DNA of 64,000 bases from Gemmatimonadota bacterium (GCA_002712305.1 PATE01000063.1:54984-118983); one strand, 5' to 3'; numbered from the stretch's first letter, positions 44,501-49,690 are shown. Numbers and translations are program-made. The notes: generated by a model not told the origin, from the letters alone.

Positions 44501-44801
44501 CCAGGGGCTGACCCGTGACGAGGCCATCGTCGAGGCGGGGCGCGCTCGATTCCGCCCCATTGTGCTGACCTCAGCGACGACCTTCTTCGCCCTGTTGCCG
44601 ATGATCCTGGAGAAGAGTGTTCAGGCCCAATTCCTGATTCCCATGGCCGTGAGTCTCGGATTCGGCATTCTCTTTGCGACCTTCATCATTCTGATCGGTG
44701 TCCCTGCAGGCATGAAGAGCCTGGACATGGTGCTCAGTCAGGTAGAGCGGCGCCGATCCCCCGATCCGGAGGCCCCGTTGGGCGCCGATCCCGCGATCTA
44801 A
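41589..44801 (+). CDS. RND family efflux transporter permease (AcrB/CzcA-like)
   Basis: 1070 aa, 12 TM with two large periplasmic loops; N-terminus MIKSVTWMARNHVAANLLMIFVMVAGI. Confidence 0.9.
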   Translation: MIKSVTWMARNHVAANLLMIFVMVAGILGIVRMKKETFPEFDLDIIQIQVPYLGASPEDVEDGVVRRIEERLNGLEGIRRVSATAAEGMAMVSVELDLGADGEQVLEDIKNEIDRIDTFPAETETPIIKEMTRRNRVIDIVVFGDVTERALKVAAERVREDLRASPLVSQVELVGVRIDEISVEVSEASLRRHSLTLDDIALAIRRTSLDLPAGSVKGEGGEILLRTKGLLYDGRDYESIVVQTAPDGTQLRLGQLATIVDGFEDSDLISRFEGRPAAVIGAYRTGNESALEISDFVKSYVADQRSMMPVGVEIDFVRDDARLLRSRLDLLIRNAQLGLILVFIVLSLFLDLRLAFWVMMGIPISFLGSFLLIEPFDVSINMLSLFAFIVALGIVVDDAIVVGENIFAHRERGKPFLQAAIDGTLEVGKPVIFTILTSIVAFMPLAFVDGVMGKFMFVIPIIVVSVLVLSLVEALYILPAHLSSQAGRVSRLLGFLFSRPLQWHGRTSAAVNRGMRHVIDHWYTPLVRSAVRNSPTTMAIGIAVMLATFGWVAGGHIKFVFMPTIDSDWVTIAIEMPQGTTVDQTRRVVSHIERAAMDVRDRLDAERGVADADASIYRNVFSLIGDQPMGARSRFTPTGSAGGQAHLAEIVIELLPSEERTVSSSSIVAHVRAAAGDLSGPESVTYTASLFTIGNAIEIQLASADFEQLLVAVERLKDEIASYPGTSEIQDSFKEGKLEMRLDLKPQARVLGLTMADLARQVRSGFYGAEALRIQRGSDDARVMVRYPADERRALGDIEGMRIRTPAGDEVPFSYVADVSLGHGYASIQRSDGQRIVNVTADVDDRVGNAEQINSDLQSRFLPRLIQDYPGLRFSYEGEQREQADSFASLAQGFLVAMLAIYALLAIPFKSYTQPLVVMSAIPFGMIGAVWGHVVMGLDLAMLSMFGVVALSGVVVNDSLILLSFYNSLRDQGLTRDEAIVEAGRARFRPIVLTSATTFFALLPMILEKSVQAQFLIPMAVSLGFGILFATFIILIGVPAGMKSLDMVLSQVERRRSPDPEAPLGADPAI

Positions 44802-44987
44802 AGGGTCCGACGTTTCCAGGTCGGTTCCCGGATTTGTAGGTCGGCAATTGCTTGACAGCAGCCCCGCCTCGGGTAACTTTCCCGGCCCGTCGGTCCGTTT
44901 CTACGATCGGCAACCGGTTTCGTAAACTGCGTCCGCCTTTGAGCGGGCGTTTCTCCAACGACCCTGCAACAATTCAGGAGCTACCCG

Positions 44988-45920
44988 TTGAGAGATTTTG
45001 AGTACACCGCACCCAGCACGCTCAGGGAAGCGGTCAAACTCCTGTCCGAGAAGGGGGAGGCCGCCCGTGTTCTTGCGGGAGGTACCGACTTGATCGTGCA
45101 GTTAAGGGCGCGTCGCTTCCAGCCAGAACGCGTCGTCGATGTCAAGAACATCCCCGAAGTCAATGAACTGTCCGTCAGCCCTCGAAAGGGTCTGCGAATC
45201 GGTGCAGCGGTTCCCTGTCACCGCATCTACGCCGATGAGGGGGTCAAAGAGCAGTTCGCCGGACTCACCGACGCGTCGATGATCATCGGTGGTATCCAGA
45301 TCCAGGGACGGGCCAGCCTCGGCGGCAACCTTTGCAACGCCTCGCCGAGTGCCGACAGCATTCCTGCCCTCATCGCCTACGGTGCCGAGGCGGAAGTCAT
45401 CGGCCCCGACGGAAAACGCAAGATCGCCGTCGAAGATTTCTGCACAGGCCCTGGATCCAACGCCCTGAAGCCCGGGGAAATGTTGGTGGCCATCCGGATG
45501 CCCTTGCCCAAGAACAACAGCGGTGGACATTACCTGCGATTCATCCCACGCAACGAAATGGACATCGCCGTCGTAGGCGCTGGTGCGTTCGTCGAGTTGG
45601 GTGGACGCAGCAAGACACGCGTGTTCAAGTCAGCTCGTATTGCCCTGGCGGCTGTCGCCCCCACACCATTGCTGGTCGCTGAGGCGGGAGCTTCCCTCGA
45701 GGGGCAACCCGTCACAGAAGAAACCATCGCCGCCGCTGCGGCGATCGCCCAGGAGGCGGCGCGTCCGATCAGCGACATGCGCGGGCCGGCCGAGTATCGC
45801 CGACATCTCGTCGGTGTGCTGACCAAGCGTGCTCTGATCGGTGCTGTGAAGCGCGCCAATGGCGAATTTGTGCCCAATGCCGTGCAGTCCAACGGCCATC
45901 CTGTCTATCAACTGTCCTGA
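44988..45920 (+). CDS. molybdenum hydroxylase FAD-binding (medium) subunit, CoxM/CutM-like
   Basis: TTG start 7 nt after the aggag SD. AGGTDL, CO-dehydrogenase flavoprotein C-domain; 310 aa. Confidence 0.8.
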   Translation: MRDFEYTAPSTLREAVKLLSEKGEAARVLAGGTDLIVQLRARRFQPERVVDVKNIPEVNELSVSPRKGLRIGAAVPCHRIYADEGVKEQFAGLTDASMIIGGIQIQGRASLGGNLCNASPSADSIPALIAYGAEAEVIGPDGKRKIAVEDFCTGPGSNALKPGEMLVAIRMPLPKNNSGGHYLRFIPRNEMDIAVVGAGAFVELGGRSKTRVFKSARIALAAVAPTPLLVAEAGASLEGQPVTEETIAAAAAIAQEAARPISDMRGPAEYRRHLVGVLTKRALIGAVKRANGEFVPNAVQSNGHPVYQLS

Positions 45921-45954
45921 CGCACGACGCTCTCACCGACAAAGGCTACTTAGC

Positions 45955-46425
45955 ATGAGCAAGATCCACGTCCAATGCACCATCAACGGTGAGCCCACGG
46001 AGTTTCTCTGCGAGGCACGTCAGAGTCTTCTGGAGGTCCTGCGTGAGGAACTTGGTTTCACCGGCACGAAAGAAGGCTGCAACGACGGCAATTGCGGGGC
46101 TTGCAGCGTCACCGTCGACGGTGTCCTCGTCGACTCCTGCCTCATTCTTGCAGCCGAGGTTCAGGACAAGACCGTCGGCACCGTCGAAGGACTAGCCAGC
46201 GCCGAGGGGCTACATCCACTCCAGCAGAAGTTTCTGGAGCATGCGAGCCTTCAGTGTGGTATTTGCACGCCCGGTTTCCTGGTGGCAAGCAAAGCCCTGC
46301 TTGACGCCAATCCCAATCCCAGCCAGCACGAGATTCGGCACTGGTTGGCCGGCAATCTGTGTCGTTGCACCGGTTACGACAAGATCGTGCGCGCCGTCCT
46401 CGACGCCGCTGGAACCGCCGAGTAA
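45955..46425 (+). CDS. molybdenum hydroxylase [2Fe-2S] (small) subunit, CoxS/CutS-like
   Basis: Trimmed to the ATG at 45955. Cysteine ligand clusters CNDGNCGACSV and CGICTPGF...CRCTGY. Confidence 0.85.
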   Translation: MSKIHVQCTINGEPTEFLCEARQSLLEVLREELGFTGTKEGCNDGNCGACSVTVDGVLVDSCLILAAEVQDKTVGTVEGLASAEGLHPLQQKFLEHASLQCGICTPGFLVASKALLDANPNPSQHEIRHWLAGNLCRCTGYDKIVRAVLDAAGTAE

Positions 46426-46557
46426 CGGCGCCAGCACAGGGCACGCGAACGCGGTATCGATCTCGACGGCGCTGGTCTCCCACGGAGGCTGGCGCCGTCT
46501 TTTTCGCATGGATCGATTCACAAAGGGTCCGACACCCGAACTCGGAGATGACAACCC

Positions 46558-48876
46558 ATGACAGACCATGGTGAGACGACCCGCAAGGGTGGTGAAATCC
46601 GCAATTTCGGCACACAGACCTACAAGGTCGTGGGCACGCGGCCCATTCGGCACGATGGAACAGACAAGGTGACGGGGCGCGCCGTCTACGGCGGAGACAT
46701 ACGGCTGCCGGGCATGCTCTACGGCCAGATCCTGCGATCGCCCCACGCCCACGCCAGGATCCAGCGGATCGATACCTCGCGAGCTGAAGCCCTGCCTGGG
46801 GTTCACGCCGTCGTGACCGCCGCCGACCTGCCGGACACCACCGGTGGCCGCATCGATCTTGGTGAGGGGCATGCAGATACGAAATACATGCGAGACAATA
46901 TCCTGGCTGGTGACAAGGTCCTCTATCGAGGTCACGCTGTGGCCGGGGTTGCTGCCGTTTCCCTTCACGTTGCCGAAGAGGCATTGGCGCTGATCGATGT
47001 GGACTACGAACTCCTCGAGCCCGTGATCGACGTCGAGACGGCTATGAAGGACTCGGCCCCCCTGTTGCACGAGGGGCTTACGACGACCGAACTCAACGAA
47101 GACACCGGCCGCAAAAGCAACATTGCCATGCACATCCGGCATGAGATGGGCGATGTGCAACAGGCCTTTGCCGGGGCAGCCCATGTGGCCGAAGCGGAGA
47201 TCCGAACGGCGACGGTGCACCAAGGTTACATCGAGCCGCAGAACGGTACCGCCTCATGGAGTGAGGATGGCCAGCTGACGATCTGGACCAGCACGCAGGG
47301 GTCCTTCACGGCGCAGAAGCAGTTGGCGACGATCCTCGACATTCCCGTGTCGAAAGTGCGTGTCATTCCTCAAGAGATCGGTGGCGGTTTTGGCGGTAAG
47401 ATCCCCGTCTACGTCGAGCCTGTGGCTGCCCTGCTGTCCCGCAAGACCGCTCATCCGGTCAAGATTATCATGACACGGGCCGACGTCTTTGAGAGCACCG
47501 GACCCACACCCGGTTCCTATGTGCGTGTGAAGATGGCCACCGACGCATCTGGGAAACTCGTTGCCTCTGAGGCCCATATCGCTCTGGAAGCGGGTGCTTT
47601 TCCTGGCGCTGAGATCGGTGCTGCTGCGATGTGTGTGTTCTCCTGCTACGACATTCCGCACGCGGTCGTCGATGGCTATGACGTCGTTGTGAACAAACCG
47701 AAATCGGCGCCATACCGAGCACCGGGGGCGACACAGGTCACGTGGCCCGTGGAAAAGGTGATGGATGATCTGGCCCGTCAACTGGGTAAGGACCCGGTCG
47801 CGTTCCGCCTCGACAACGCAGCCGCAGAGGGCACACGGCGCGTCGACGGGATCGTCTATCCACGCATCGGTGGTCGTGAATGTCTGGAGGTTGCCCGCGA
47901 TTCCGACCACTATCAGTCCGAGTTGTCTGGCCCCTATCGGGGGCGTGGGATGGCGATTGGATACTGGTTCAACATCGGCCTGAAATCAGCGGTTACGGCC
48001 AGCGTCAACGCCGACGGCACCGTCCATCTCGTGGAAGGGTCGACGGATATTGGTGGCACACGCACCTCCGTGGCGATGCAGTTTGCCGAAACTCTCGGGT
48101 TGGATGCGGCCGACATCTATCCGAGCGTCGGCGACACGAGCGCCATCGGCTATACCGACGTCACCGGTGGCAGTCGGGTGACCTATGCCACGGGTTGGGC
48201 GGCCTATGAAGCGGCAGAAGACGTGAAACGTCAGATGATCGAGCGCGCCGCGATTCTGTGGGAATCGAGTGCAGATCAAGTCGAATACAGCGACGGAGTG
48301 TTCAAGACCAGAGACGGTTCGAAATCGGCCGACTTCAAACAGTTGGCCCAGAAGCTCGAGGATACGGGAGGCCCCGTCGTGGGCAGAGCGACCGTTCATC
48401 CCGACACGGGCGTCGGTGGGTCGTTCGCGGTGAATATCGTGGACGTGGAGGTCGACCCCGACACGGGGAAAGTGGACATCCTGAGATTCACCGTCATTCA
48501 GGACGCTGGCAAAGCGATCCACCCCAGTTATGTAGAAGGTCAGATGCAAGGGGGCAGCGTACAGGGCATCGGTTGGGCGCTGAACGAGGAGTATGCTTAC
48601 ACCGAGGAAGGCCGTATGGCGAATTCGACATTCCTCGACTATCGCATGCCCACCAGCCTCGACCTTCCCATGATCGAAACGATCATCGTCGAAGTACCCA
48701 ATCCTGGACATCCGTATGGCGTGCGGGGCGTGGGTGAGGCGTCGATTGCGCCGCCGCCGGCCGCCGTTGCCGCCGCCGTTGAGAACGCGACTGGTACTCA
48801 GCTAAATGTCCTGCCTCTGCGTCCAGATCGCATCATCAATGCCATGGAAGATTCGATTCCAGCCGCTGCTGGCTGA
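46558..48876 (+). CDS. molybdopterin-binding (large) subunit of a xanthine dehydrogenase-family hydroxylase
   Basis: 772 aa; Ald_Xan_dh_C and C2 domains; active-site loop APYRAPG. Confidence 0.85.
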   Translation: MTDHGETTRKGGEIRNFGTQTYKVVGTRPIRHDGTDKVTGRAVYGGDIRLPGMLYGQILRSPHAHARIQRIDTSRAEALPGVHAVVTAADLPDTTGGRIDLGEGHADTKYMRDNILAGDKVLYRGHAVAGVAAVSLHVAEEALALIDVDYELLEPVIDVETAMKDSAPLLHEGLTTTELNEDTGRKSNIAMHIRHEMGDVQQAFAGAAHVAEAEIRTATVHQGYIEPQNGTASWSEDGQLTIWTSTQGSFTAQKQLATILDIPVSKVRVIPQEIGGGFGGKIPVYVEPVAALLSRKTAHPVKIIMTRADVFESTGPTPGSYVRVKMATDASGKLVASEAHIALEAGAFPGAEIGAAAMCVFSCYDIPHAVVDGYDVVVNKPKSAPYRAPGATQVTWPVEKVMDDLARQLGKDPVAFRLDNAAAEGTRRVDGIVYPRIGGRECLEVARDSDHYQSELSGPYRGRGMAIGYWFNIGLKSAVTASVNADGTVHLVEGSTDIGGTRTSVAMQFAETLGLDAADIYPSVGDTSAIGYTDVTGGSRVTYATGWAAYEAAEDVKRQMIERAAILWESSADQVEYSDGVFKTRDGSKSADFKQLAQKLEDTGGPVVGRATVHPDTGVGGSFAVNIVDVEVDPDTGKVDILRFTVIQDAGKAIHPSYVEGQMQGGSVQGIGWALNEEYAYTEEGRMANSTFLDYRMPTSLDLPMIETIIVEVPNPGHPYGVRGVGEASIAPPPAAVAAAVENATGTQLNVLPLRPDRIINAMEDSIPAAAG

Positions 48877-48883
48877 GTCCGCC

Positions 48884-49156
48884 ATGGCGATGGTCTGGAT
48901 TCCCGCGCCCTGGCGAGAGAAACTGACGCAGGGTCAACAGCAGGTCGATGTCGAGGGAGCCACAGTGCGGCAGGTGATCGAGGCCCTCGATGCACGTTTT
49001 CCGGGGATGCGGCAGAGAATCATCGATCCGGAACACGATCGAATTCGGCACGATATCGCCGTCTCCGTCGATGGCGAGATCTCTGTCGAAGGTCTACGAC
49101 GCAAGGTCGGTGAAACCAGTGAGGTCCACTTCCTGCCTGCCATGGCGGGCGGCTGA
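48884..49156 (+). CDS. MoaD/ThiS/CysO-family ubiquitin-like sulfur-carrier protein
   Basis: Trimmed to the ATG at 48884. ~90 aa, ends ...LPAMAGG with a C-terminal Gly-Gly; aligns to the MoaD/CysO pattern. Confidence 0.75.
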   Translation: MAMVWIPAPWREKLTQGQQQVDVEGATVRQVIEALDARFPGMRQRIIDPEHDRIRHDIAVSVDGEISVEGLRRKVGETSEVHFLPAMAGG

Positions 49157-49183
49157 GGCACGCCAGGAACCCTAAAGAAAACG

Positions 49184-49211
49184 GGCCCCGCGAAATCGAA
49201 TCGTGGGGCCC
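49184..49211 (-). terminator. stem-loop GGGCCCC-N14-GGGGCCC with T-run on the minus strand (terminator of the ugd...dut operon)
   Basis: On the minus strand the stem is followed by gttttcttt; sits between the convergent dut and MoaD-like genes. Confidence 0.5.
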
Positions 49212-49243
49212 TCACCTTTGCCCTTCGGCAGAGTCCATTGAGG

Positions 49244-49690
49244 TCAAGTGCGTCCGGTGGAGCCGAAACCTCTCTCGCCTCGTCGCGTGTCTCCCAACTC
49301 ATCGACCAGCTCCCATTCTGCTCGGGTCACCGGCGCGAACACGAGTTGGGCGATGCGCTCACCCGGTTCGATCACCTGCTCTTGTCCAGATAGATTCACC
49401 AGGATGACCCCCACGTCGCCCCGGTAGTCGGCATCGATCGTGCCCGGCGCATTGAGCACCGTGAGTCCACGTTTGAGGGCCAAACCGCTGCGGGGCCGTA
49501 CCTGACCTTCGTATCCGGTGGGAATCTCAATCTTCAAGCCCGAAGCAATCAACGCACGCTCGCCCGCAGCCAGGGTCAGCGCCTCGGCGAGATGCGCACG
49601 CAGATCCATGCCCGCACTGTCGATCGTTTCGTAGGCGGGCAGGGCTCCTTCGGTCTCTTGTACAACACGCACACGAATTACTGTGCTCAT
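49244..49690 (-). CDS. dut: dUTP diphosphatase
   Basis: Trimmed to the ATG at 49690. AGMDLRA, RSGLALKRG, GTIDADYRG, C-terminal RGERGFGSTG motifs. Confidence 0.9.
   Translation of the reverse strand: MSTVIRVRVVQETEGALPAYETIDSAGMDLRAHLAEALTLAAGERALIASGLKIEIPTGYEGQVRPRSGLALKRGLTVLNAPGTIDADYRGDVGVILVNLSGQEQVIEPGERIAQLVFAPVTRAEWELVDELGDTRRGERGFGSTGRT

Follow-up and report, generated by a model that had tools for sequence, protein, structure and literature searches.

A CysO/MoaD-like sulfur-carrier gene kept beside an uncharacterised molybdenum hydroxylase in Gemmatimonadota and other phyla

The window analysed here is a 64,000-nucleotide stretch of DNA from a Gemmatimonadota bacterium. Positions 44988-49156 hold four genes, which encode the FAD subunit (M), the 2Fe-2S subunit (S) and the Mo-pterin subunit (L) of a hydroxylase and a small sulfur-carrier-like protein, U (Table 1). 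All four are present where the preliminary description had placed them, so its observation is real, and the order M-S-L that it gave was confirmed by Pfam domains and coordinates. M matches FAD_binding_5 (153 bits) and CO_deh_flav_C (92 bits), and its homologues aligned starting at residue 1. S carries Fer2 plus Fer2_2 (106 bits) in the Pfam search. The reading frame of S is open from 45859; its conserved start, the ATG at 45955 (MSKIHV...), 34 nt past the M stop, was set by homologue alignments, which begin at residue 1, and by reading of the sequence. U had been described as overlapping the 3' end of L, but this turned out to be wrong. A long open reading frame of U (48806-49156) does overlap L, whereas the true start is the ATG at 48884 (MAMVWIP...), where all homologues begin as well. 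U starts 7 nt after the TGA stop codon of L (48874-48876), so the two genes do not overlap. The commonest gap between the L stop and the U start among the loci compared is 4-6 nt. U is probably co-expressed, and also translationally coupled, with L.

Table 1. Genes and RNA-level elements of the hydroxylase-U module.
Feature	Position	Strand	Remarks
M, FAD-binding medium subunit, 310 aa	44988-45920	+	TTG start; AGGAG 8 nt upstream
S, [2Fe-2S] small subunit, 156 aa	45955-46425	+	Pfam Fer2 and Fer2_2
GC-rich stem-loop followed by TTTTT, inside the 132-nt S-L spacer	46465-46499	+	Terminator scan
L, molybdopterin-binding large subunit, 772 aa	46558-48876	+	Ald_Xan_dh_C, MoCoBD_1, MoCoBD_2
U, CysO/MoaD-like ubiquitin-fold sulfur-carrier protein, 90 aa	48884-49156	+	Pfam ThiS; ends in SEVHFLPAMAGG before the stop
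Inverted repeat rich in GC, between U and the convergent dUTPase gene	49183-49211		Direct sequence reading

L scored far above the cut-offs of Ald_Xan_dh_C (103 bits), MoCoBD_1 (225 bits) and MoCoBD_2 (207 bits). It has the architecture of the xanthine-oxidase family, that is, an Ald_Xan_dh_C and two MoCoBD domains accompanied by separate FAD and 2x[2Fe-2S] subunits. A non-CoxL active-site loop had been noted in L, and the alignment bears this out: APYRAPG (residues 384-390) lies opposite VAYRCSFR of O. carboxidovorans CoxL (1n5w_B), and Ala replaces the copper-binding Cys388. The catalytic residues are kept; Gln247 (TSTQ), Arg387 (in APYRAPG) and Glu727 (GVGEAS) are equivalent to CoxL Gln240, Arg387 and Glu763, respectively. 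Since these residues are the ones present in active Mo=S hydroxylases, L would require a fully sulfurated cofactor. Residue 282, right after GGGFGGK, is Ile; we take this position to be that of bovine Glu802, the substrate-binding Glu of XDH.

L is under every curated equivalog cut-off. Its best NCBIfam match is the alpha subunit of 4-hydroxybenzoyl-CoA reductase (HcrA, TIGR03194; 465.9 bits, cut-off 994.55), and L scored 434.7 bits against XdhA (cut-off 780), the highest value among the XdhA/PucD/XdhB equivalogs, and 299.8 bits against form-I CoxL (TIGR02416; cut-off 991). M is below all NCBIfam equivalog cut-offs; its match to the beta subunit of 4-hydroxybenzoyl-CoA reductase (136.6 bits, cut-off 404.55) is split into two separate stretches. 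The equivalog scores against HcrABC and form-I CoxL are thus less than half of the cut-offs. We rejected L as a form-I CO dehydrogenase because of its loop, the Ala at the Cys388 site and the low CoxL score, and as a xanthine dehydrogenase because of the equivalog score and the Ile where Glu802 is expected. M and L were rejected as 4-hydroxybenzoyl-CoA reductase, as both the alpha and the beta cut-offs were missed. The best PDB match of L is 1rm6_A, and the nearest characterised relatives are HcrABC (1rm6, 302 bits), form-I/II CoxLMS (270 bits) and 6-hydroxypseudooxynicotine dehydrogenase (7dqx, 253 bits). These systems have the same three-subunit architecture as M-S-L, and none of them has been described with a ThiS-like gene. 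Judged from its sequence, M-S-L is an FAD / 2x[2Fe-2S] / Mo-pterin hydroxylase of an uncharacterised subfamily and not a CO, xanthine or 4-hydroxybenzoyl-CoA enzyme.

The gene after L had been thought to encode a ubiquitin-like protein of about 90 residues ending in Gly-Gly. U is indeed such a protein, and it belongs to the ThiS/MoaD superfamily: it matches Pfam ThiS (PF02597) with 37.9 bits, over the gathering cut-off of 22.5, and spans the whole profile (positions 1-76). SAMP1 is the top NCBIfam match (NF041918; 42.6 bits, cut-off 60), and the scores against archaeal MoaD (moaD_arch, TIGR01687; 37.9 bits, cut-off 49.5) and MoaD (TIGR01682; 18.6 bits, cut-off 66.15) are also under the cut-offs. 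The AF2 model of U is a confident beta-grasp (pLDDT 91.1 overall; 74 in the final block), and Foldseek matched it to CysO (3dwg_C, TM 0.88), SAMP1 (0.72), E. coli MoaD (0.65) and Urm1. By sequence, the best PDB match is Mycobacterium tuberculosis CysO, but the match is weak (30 bits, about 31% identity), and identity of around 30% is too low to establish orthology. The model suggests that U is closest to mycobacterial CysO and less close to canonical MoaD. Public records name U "molybdopterin synthase sulfur carrier subunit" or "MoaD/ThiS family protein", and there is only one U-like gene per locus.

Across 26 homologues with identities of 47-86%, the C-terminal tail of U, SEVHFLPAxxGG (last 11 residues), is invariant and the remainder varies, a pattern expected if the tail is the working part. 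The Gly-Gly is invariant in these 26 aligned homologues and also in 79 distinct locus copies. U in the window ends exactly at this Gly-Gly; about two thirds of the distinct U sequences (52/79) have 1-19 variable residues beyond it. Most U proteins therefore appear to be made as a pro-form that has to be processed to free the GG carboxylate, and such capped termini are evidence against a purely structural subunit. Occasionally whole proteins are fused past the Gly-Gly (U-VTT, U-hydrolase and U-methyltransferase).

U lies within a hydroxylase cluster in 77 of the 78 informative GTDB species loci anchored on U. The GTDB species loci (n=80) comprise 60 with M-S-L-U, 8 with M-S-L-x-U and 9 with M-S-U, and L is directly upstream of U in 27 of 36 metagenome loci. 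The pairing spans at least five phyla, namely Gemmatimonadota, Latescibacterota, Dehalococcoidia/SAR202, Planctomycetota and Verrucomicrobiota, and the flanking genes are unrelated among Gemmatimonadota/Latescibacterota, Dehalococcoidia, Planctomycetota and Verrucomicrobiota. The pairing is far above chance. It apparently has not been described before for a sulfur-carrier gene and a xanthine-oxidase-family hydroxylase. In split operons U sometimes remains beside M-S while L stands alone elsewhere (L081 vs L094-L096). Some members of the U family are away from any hydroxylase: L004, where U follows DUF4838, L086, and L112/L118, where U adjoins or is fused to a VTT membrane domain. In Dehalococcoidia, genes for a PIG-L deacetylase, a DHDPS-family protein and an alpha/beta-hydrolase are conserved downstream of U and are kept in L086 without M-S-L.

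Partner genes were sought in the window and around U in other genomes. The window, with its roughly 55 ORFs, yielded no XdhC, CoxD/E/F, ThiF/MoeB, MoaE or JAB. XdhC was likewise not found in the distinct neighbourhoods whose called genes carry precomputed Pfam annotation. A phmmer search of the window and 93 loci, with a probe validated by Pfam, gave no MoaE, nor did a tblastn search of 36 further loci, and no ThiF/MoeB-type E1 was found within +-10 kb of U in about 130 loci. MoaE, MoaA/C and CysM were never beside U in these loci. A JAB peptidase is present in only two of them (L060 and L084), 7-8 kb from U, and the window has a single PALP gene, 25 kb from U; neither PALP nor JAB was found adjoining U. 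A sulfur-acceptor enzyme conserved across lineages (PLP synthase, ThiG, BexX-like or AMP-ligase) was not found either, and the genes outside M-S-L differ completely from phylum to phylum. U was thus rejected as a canonical MoaD (equivalog cut-off missed, no MoaE neighbour in the loci searched), as the CysO of cysteine biosynthesis by the operon test (CysM, a PLP enzyme, and the Mec JAB not adjacent) and as a SAMP1 equivalog. The small ORF passed both refuting checks set in the preliminary description, the profile match and the conservation downstream of orthologous hydroxylase operons, and the gene order, the loop and the lack of XdhC/CoxDEF in the window stood as well. Apart from the overlap with L, what failed was the strict dedication of U to this enzyme: U is not tied to L where operons are split, and in some subclades it is beside unrelated genes.

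It is plausible, with a probability of about 0.45, that U, activated by an E1, carries a thiocarboxylate whose sulfur goes to the Mo cofactor of this hydroxylase. In most lineages U would be made with its short variable cap, which a peptidase would trim to expose the Gly-Gly; U of the window already ends there. We infer that an unlinked MoeB/MoeZ-type E1 would then adenylate the terminal glycine, leading to a thiocarboxylate, and that the flexible LPAxxGG-COSH tail may hand its sulfur to the sulfur-containing Mo cofactor of the hydroxylase, either at the molybdopterin dithiolene, as in a MoaD-like role, or at the terminal Mo=S ligand. By analogy, this proposal has a precedent. MoaD-like genes strictly adjoin those of tungsten aldehyde ferredoxin oxidoreductase (AOR) and were read as cofactor-biosynthesis factors (Iyer, Burroughs & Aravind 2006, PMC1779556), and the MoaD-like aorD/aorE products of Aromatoleum aromaticum are not in the purified enzyme (Arndt et al. 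2019, PMC6365974). As in the AOR operons, a small ThiS/MoaD-superfamily GG protein is encoded right next to the subunit of a Mo/W oxidoreductase that holds the pterin cofactor; scattered phyla keep this pairing, and the small protein is presumed to serve in cofactor maturation and not as a subunit. However, the partner here is the unrelated M-S-L enzyme, AOR clusters often hold a MoeB or MoaE, neither of which was found in about 130 U loci, and U differs from the AOR proteins in being CysO-like and, in most family members, capped. Against sulfur supply to the cofactor, nothing in the neighbourhood ties U specifically to cofactor biosynthesis, U appears from sequence and model more like CysO, a metabolic sulfur carrier, than MoaD, some U-family members are away from any hydroxylase, and U can stay with M-S instead of the cofactor-binding L.

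Alternatively, U may be the organism's general-purpose MoaD/CysO-type carrier, serving molybdopterin synthase, cysteine or further thiolations; it would then stand beside a major molybdoenzyme by chance and have no role specific to that enzyme. The names in public records, the single U-like gene per locus and the family members without a hydroxylase agree with this, as does the lack of a linked dedicated E1, which is typical of shared carriers; MoaD itself is rarely beside MoeB (PMC1779556). It is nevertheless unlikely, because synteny inertia hardly explains why the linkage to M-S-L holds in five or more phyla whose flanks are unrelated, in 77/78 informative loci and with a spacing of 4-6 nt, and because U fails the MoaD equivalog model and is never beside MoaE, MoaA/C or CysM. 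With MoaD (E. coli 1fm0_D; TIGR01682) U shares the superfamily, the fold and a similar tail motif, EVAFFPPVTGG at the C-terminus of E. coli MoaD against SEVHFLPAMAGG in U; the bit score, the TM of only 0.65 and the lack of MoaE set the two apart.

The nearest solved relatives of U (CysO, the CysO partner of BexX, SAMP1 and MoaD) are all GG-tail sulfur carriers or modifiers. The closest, CysO of M. tuberculosis (3dwg with CysM; 3dwm) and Amycolatopsis CysO serving the thiosugar enzyme BexX (4n6e), with TM 0.87-0.88, are metabolic and share with U the ...LPAxAGG tail and the beta-grasp of about 90 residues. The U thiocarboxylate could therefore be a co-substrate in a small-molecule pathway in which the hydroxylase makes or consumes the intermediate that receives the sulfur, as in CysO/CysM, QbsE and BexX/CysO. 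The capped termini would point to a processing step, and QbsE is capped after GG in the same way as the U pro-forms; the genes that follow U in Dehalococcoidia even without M-S-L would also fit. Unlike CysO, however, U has no adjacent CysM, Mec/JAB or BexX-like partner and is linked to a molybdenum hydroxylase, and the lack of a conserved acceptor and the wholly different neighbours between phyla speak against this pathway, which is slightly less probable than a general carrier. Least probable is that U acts as a ubiquitin-like modifier of proteins, of the SAMP/TtuB type, or that it binds to, or becomes conjugated with, the hydroxylase as a fourth, non-catalytic subunit or as a regulator. Such a role would suit the top NCBIfam match to SAMP1, the variable caps and fusions, which recall ubiquitin precursors, and the tight L-U spacing, which suggests stoichiometric co-production. 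However, the SAMP1 score is under its cut-off, the E1 is not linked and JAB almost never is, the invariant Gly-Gly and the need for uncapping speak against a passive subunit, and the AOR precedent has its MoaD-like proteins missing from the purified enzyme (PMC6365974).

If U supplies sulfur to the cofactor, it would meet the same need as the XdhC system, a sulfurated Mo cofactor for an M-S-L hydroxylase. XdhC/PaoD-dependent sulfuration, in which XdhC acts together with NifS4, is known for xanthine-oxidase-family enzymes of bacteria (PMC13653126, PMC2997495). The sulfido ligand was reviewed in 2026 with no mention of MoaD-like proteins or thiocarboxylates. XdhC, like U, is usually encoded last in the operon. 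In contrast to U, a 10-kDa ubiquitin-fold carrier, XdhC is a Moco-binding chaperone of about 30 kDa that receives sulfur from a cysteine-desulfurase persulfide, and the U clusters examined are without XdhC.

Two RNA-level elements accompany the genes. In the terminator scan, 11 of the 16 base pairs in the stem of the S-L spacer hairpin are GC; the hairpin has no Rfam match at E<=1. It is shared with 8 related loci and shows compensatory changes in 7 of the 14 predicted pairs, and it is possibly an internal attenuator or mRNA-stability element. The inverted repeat downstream of U, GGGCCCCGCGA-AATCGAA-TCGTGGGGCCC, was not among the hits of the consensus terminator scan; from its sequence, it is likely a bidirectional terminator at the 3' end of the operon.

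The pairing of a small sulfur-carrier gene with a molybdenum hydroxylase is real and robustly conserved. The module at 44988-49156 consists of four co-directional genes, which encode the FAD subunit (M), the 2Fe-2S subunit (S), the Mo-pterin large subunit (L) and a 90-aa protein (U) whose C-terminal end reads ...SEVHFLPAMAGG-stop. The start of S was revised to an ATG 34 nt past the M stop, where the homologue alignments begin, and that of U to an ATG that agrees with the N-termini of every homologue. The preliminary description had U overlapping the 3' end of L; its real start is 7 nt past the L stop (TGA 48874-48876), so there is no overlap. A GC-rich inverted repeat lies between U and the convergent dUTPase gene. 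An Rfam search over 44700-49400 (E ≤ 1) returned no Moco riboswitch or other known RNA, and a sigma-70 promoter scan, which is uninformative for this phylum, gave no match upstream of M.

Coordinates of the module, its surroundings and the related loci (L numbers, individual loci with ±10-kb neighbourhoods; P numbers, individual protein records)
Feature	Source	Start	End	Strand	Remark
M	window	44988	45920	+	FAD_binding_5, CO_deh_flav_C (Pfam)
S	window	45955		+	Fer2, Fer2_2 (Pfam); ATG, MSKIHV...
S-L spacer	window	46426	46557		
Hairpin in S-L spacer	window	46465	46499	+	terminator-like
L	window	46558	48876	+	Ald_Xan_dh_C, MoCoBD_1, MoCoBD_2 (Pfam)
U	window	48884		+	ThiS PF02597 (Pfam); ATG, MAMVWIP...
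Inverted repeat	window	49183	49211		GC-rich
RND efflux pump	window	38804	44801		upstream flank
dUTPase, Wzz, Wza-type genes	window	49244	53617		downstream flank
PALP-family gene	window	22705	23739	-	
L orthologue P0236	L094/L095	10001	12304		
Second large-subunit gene	L090	6487	8742		
Second large-subunit gene	L119	12417	14681		
U after DUF4838 gene	L004 (also L005)	6079	8270		
Dehalococcoidia, 173-aa ORF type	L058	9186	11978		
Dehalococcoidia, 173-aa ORF type	L066				
Dehalococcoidia, 173-aa ORF type	L086	10264	13458		M-S-L missing; U with the genes that follow it
U-VTT	L118	4198	5148		
U-VTT	L112	4209	5214		
U-VTT	P0281				
JAB gene	L060	1347	1826	-	
JAB gene	L084	2856	3407	-	
Alpha/beta hydrolase gene	L012	8766	9689		
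Alpha/beta hydrolase gene	L086	12577	13458		
Example U copy (of L008-L097)	L017	10001	10282		
Example U copy (of L008-L097)	L069	10001	10306		

A protein search returned 99 U homologues. Seven were looked up, and in six distinct neighbourhoods U stood directly after an L-type gene, M and S being missing in two of the six. In the seventh, a U homologue of 57% identity follows a DUF4838 gene whose stop overlaps the U start; seryl-tRNA synthetase comes next and no hydroxylase is nearby. In a GTDB scan with one genome per species and the tail motif as query, at least 573 loci encode a relative, and the best 80 of these were classified by tblastn. They belong to Gemmatimonadota, Latescibacterota, Dehalococcoidia/SAR202, Planctomycetota, Verrucomicrobiota and one Alphaproteobacteria-labelled MAG. 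Complete chromosomes with the module are known from Latescibacterota and Dehalococcoidia, among them OZ252098.1, OZ220089.1 and OZ242014.1. The order M-S-L-U was found in 60 of the 80, so the conservation of the small ORF downstream of orthologous hydroxylases, proposed as a check in the preliminary description, was borne out. At least one extra ORF separates L from U in 8 loci, M-S-U occurs with no L within 10 kb in 9, U is alone in 1, and the contig was too short for a call in 2. The gap from the L stop to the U start has a mode of 4-6 nt. In metagenome contigs, scanned with a single unlinked U subclade as seed, 27 of 36 loci still have L as the gene directly before U. A profile search among 1.8 billion representatives gave 844 U-family clusters (50% identity, E ≤ 1e-10). 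No L-U ("Rosetta stone") fusion was found among 120 L homologues (754-779 aa), and no second U-like gene within the same loci.

All 13 NCBIfam matches of L lie far under their cut-offs; the top score is 466 bits for 4-hydroxybenzoyl-CoA reductase alpha (cut-off 994.55), and XdhA scores 435 bits (cut-off 780). The closest solved structures are 1rm6_A (302 bits), the mycobacterial CoxL 8uem (270 bits) and 6-hydroxypseudooxynicotine dehydrogenase 7dqx (253 bits). In a residue alignment with Oligotropha carboxidovorans CoxL (1n5w_B), APYRAPG (384-390) stands in for the form-I CO dehydrogenase loop VAYRCSFR and Ala occupies the position of the copper-binding Cys388, in agreement with the non-CoxL loop noted previously. 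By the same alignment, L retains the general catalytic residues Gln247 (TSTQ), Arg387 and Glu727 (GVGEAS). Directly after GGGFGGK it has Ile, at what we take to be the position of the substrate-binding Glu in xanthine dehydrogenases such as the bovine enzyme. Scores and active-site residues together exclude form-I CO dehydrogenase, xanthine dehydrogenase and 4-hydroxybenzoyl-CoA reductase as the identity of L. Since the catalytic residues are kept and the equivalog cut-offs are missed, L is presumably active as a Mo=S hydroxylase and belongs to a subfamily that is uncharacterised. Such subunits are routinely labelled "form II CoxL" or "4-hydroxybenzoyl-CoA reductase" in metagenomic surveys, and they fall under neither definition. 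The L orthologue P0236 (66% identity) is publicly named "4-hydroxybenzoyl-CoA reductase subunit alpha", probably an over-annotation because the family scores less than half of that model's cut-off. Two loci carry a paralogous second large-subunit gene (L2), 53-59% identical to the window L, just downstream of U in the order M-S-L-U-L2.

U matches Pfam ThiS (PF02597) with 37.9 bits, over the gathering score of 22.5, and its assignment to the ThiS/MoaD family in the preliminary description thus stands. It lies under all curated equivalogs, namely SAMP1 (42.6 vs 60), archaeal MoaD (37.9 vs 49.5) and MoaD (18.6 vs 66). By sequence, its nearest solved relatives are two CysO proteins, that of Mycobacterium tuberculosis (3dwg_C, 30 bits) and the BexX-serving one of Amycolatopsis (4n6e_B). 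An AlphaFold2 model built with 26 homologues has high confidence (pLDDT 91.1) and a tail that is less ordered, and Foldseek ranked CysO (TM 0.88) ahead of SAMP1 (0.72) and Escherichia coli MoaD (0.65). A ferredoxin-type beta-grasp was ruled out, as U has no cysteine. In homologues with 47-86% identity, variation is confined to the part before the final eleven residues, SEVHFLPAxxGG, which are invariant.

The window U is uncapped, as are 27 of the 79 distinct U sequences at the loci, which end at GG. The other 52 carry 1-19 variable residues past the invariant GG, e.g., AS, A, R, SxRPR or APTALPPTKGASLR, which implies C-terminal processing. An invariant GG with a variable cap is seen in ubiquitin-like proteins that need trimming to expose the reactive carboxylate, and QbsE is a bacterial sulfur-carrier example with a capped GG. 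This sequence pattern argues for chemistry at the GG terminus and against U as a passive subunit. No candidate processing peptidase is consistently linked to U; JAB genes occur only in L060 and L084. Rare long U proteins extend into unrelated whole domains (alpha/beta hydrolase, VTT membrane domain, methyltransferase), and the fusions to an S33-like alpha/beta hydrolase and to a methyltransferase are single representatives (P0264 and P0331). An alpha/beta hydrolase gene also recurs downstream of U, in 16 of the best 80 GTDB loci (most of them from Dehalococcoidia) and in L012/L013. This hydrolase may process U; alternatively, the U fusions may be artefacts of assembly.

In the best-supported reading, U would be activated by an E1 and, as a thiocarboxylate carrier functionally tied to the hydroxylase, supply sulfur for the Mo cofactor, the acceptor being either the dithiolene or the sulfido ligand. 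The nearest precedent is the MoaD-like genes that strictly adjoin tungsten aldehyde ferredoxin oxidoreductases (AOR) (PMC1779556); in Aromatoleum, AorD and AorE are missing from the enzyme after purification, and a role in cofactor biosynthesis is proposed for them (PMC6365974). Neither paper mentions xanthine-oxidase-family enzymes. However, U is closer to CysO than to MoaD, and the neighbourhood genes give no tie to cofactor biosynthesis. The 64-kb window is a housekeeping region (IleRS, SecDF, DnaE, RND efflux pump and polysaccharide-export genes), and no Moco-biosynthesis gene, ThiF/MoeB E1, JAB peptidase, rhodanese, XdhC or CoxDEF was found among all its sizeable ORFs, in line with the lack of XdhC and CoxDEF noted before. 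Probes for E. coli MoaE, E. coli MoeB and M. tuberculosis Mec were validated with Pfam (131.7, 264.4 and 103.6 bits). The MoaE and E1 probes had no match in 93 loci (±10 kb) and the window, and the JAB probe had only two, 7-8 kb from U; none of the three matched in 36 further metagenome loci. The XdhC family was not found in the Pfam annotation of the looked-up neighbourhoods.

A rival reading makes U a general MoaD/CysO carrier merely parked beside the enzyme, a proposal to be set against the retention of M-S-L-U across several phyla. U might also be a co-substrate in a thiolation pathway, and its likeness to CysO is compatible with this. The PALP family includes CysM, the partner of CysO, and a PALP-family PLP-dependent enzyme is encoded in the window, beside two FAD-linked oxidases and 25 kb from U; no evidence tying this gene to U was found. 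A third rival, U as a ubiquitin-like modifier or subunit, would suit SAMP1 as the best NCBIfam match and the caps after GG in most U sequences, and in its passive-subunit form it is opposed by the GG pattern.

A bolder version of the sulfur-carrier reading, which we consider rather unlikely (a probability of roughly 0.15), is that the U thiocarboxylate donates the terminal sulfido (Mo=S) ligand independently of XdhC and cysteine desulfurase in more than 500 marine and soil species of Gemmatimonadota, Latescibacterota, SAR202 and relatives. The hydroxylase would already be folded, and the flexible LPAxxGG-COSH tail would pass through its substrate funnel to sulfurate, or sulfurate anew, the molybdenum centre buried inside. 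Repair of the desulfo enzyme in vivo would also be possible; we know of no such repair in bacteria. Xanthine-oxidase-family enzymes are inactive without a sulfur-containing Mo cofactor, and the sole described bacterial route to the terminal sulfido ligand is XdhC with a cysteine desulfurase, NifS4 (PMC13653126). MoaD-like proteins and thiocarboxylates are both absent from a 2026 review on the sulfido ligand, and no paper in the searchable literature ties a ThiS/MoaD-like gene to xanthine-oxidase-family operons. Within that literature the pairing is undescribed for this family, and the theme of a pterin enzyme with a MoaD-like carrier next to it is known.

The module offers a widely conserved CysO-like ubiquitin-fold carrier in the place of XdhC as accessory gene. 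If the link is functional, it would give a handle on hydroxylase maturation in abundant uncultured marine and soil phyla, extend the MoaD-beside-AOR theme to another family of Mo enzymes, unrelated to AOR, and exemplify bacterial ubiquitin-like pro-proteins with variable C-terminal caps. Its interest would be far higher if U were an XdhC-independent sulfido donor.

Look-ups anchored on L found one homologue (69% identity) with the full module and two (66% identity) that are solitary, lacking M, S and U in their vicinity (L-alone loci L094-L096). Candidatus Moanabacter tarae is the source of one solitary L; M-S-U is the arrangement in a related Moanabacter genome (L081). The M-S-U loci are L015, L047, L052, L053, L057, L071, L079, L081 and L083; all except L081 and L083 share the downstream dUTPase/Wzz/Wza genes with the window, and at least four of those seven also have its upstream RND pump. 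Thus, some lineages have the module in two parts, and U may be found with either part. Dehalococcoidia often have a 173-aa ORF without Pfam match between L and U, and PIG-L deacetylase and DHDPS-family genes, often also an alpha/beta hydrolase gene, then follow U; L086 keeps U with these three genes and lacks M-S-L. A U subclade fused to, or directly before, a VTT (DedA/SNARE-associated) membrane domain was seen three times, with no hydroxylase nearby.

The RND pump flank (outer-membrane factor, membrane-fusion protein and AcrB-type pump) recurs in 16-18 of the best 80 GTDB loci, in either orientation, and the dUTPase/Wzz/Wza flank in 36-40; all such loci are of Gemmatimonadota/Latescibacterota type. 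The pump of L001 is separated from M by a TetR regulator. Within the operon, the S-L spacer holds a terminator-like hairpin with a 16-bp stem (11 GC pairs) followed by TTTTT and without Rfam match (E ≤ 1). An equivalent hairpin is at the same position in 8 related loci, 7 of its 14 predicted pairs having compensatory changes; in more distant relatives the spacer is short and carries a GAGGAGG ribosome-binding site instead. The hairpin may be an attenuator, or may set the ratio of M and S to L and U.

Different records place almost identical U proteins in Latescibacterota or in Gemmatimonadota, so the phylum assignment of the window lineage is inconsistent. A 327-kb contig from the metagenome scan (L107, PVBE012307498.1), one of the loci with L directly before U, is 99% identical to the window across M, S, L and U, and by this identity probably represents the same population. 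Among named genomes, Gemmatimonadetes MAG SI074_bin69 (87%; L014) is the closest.
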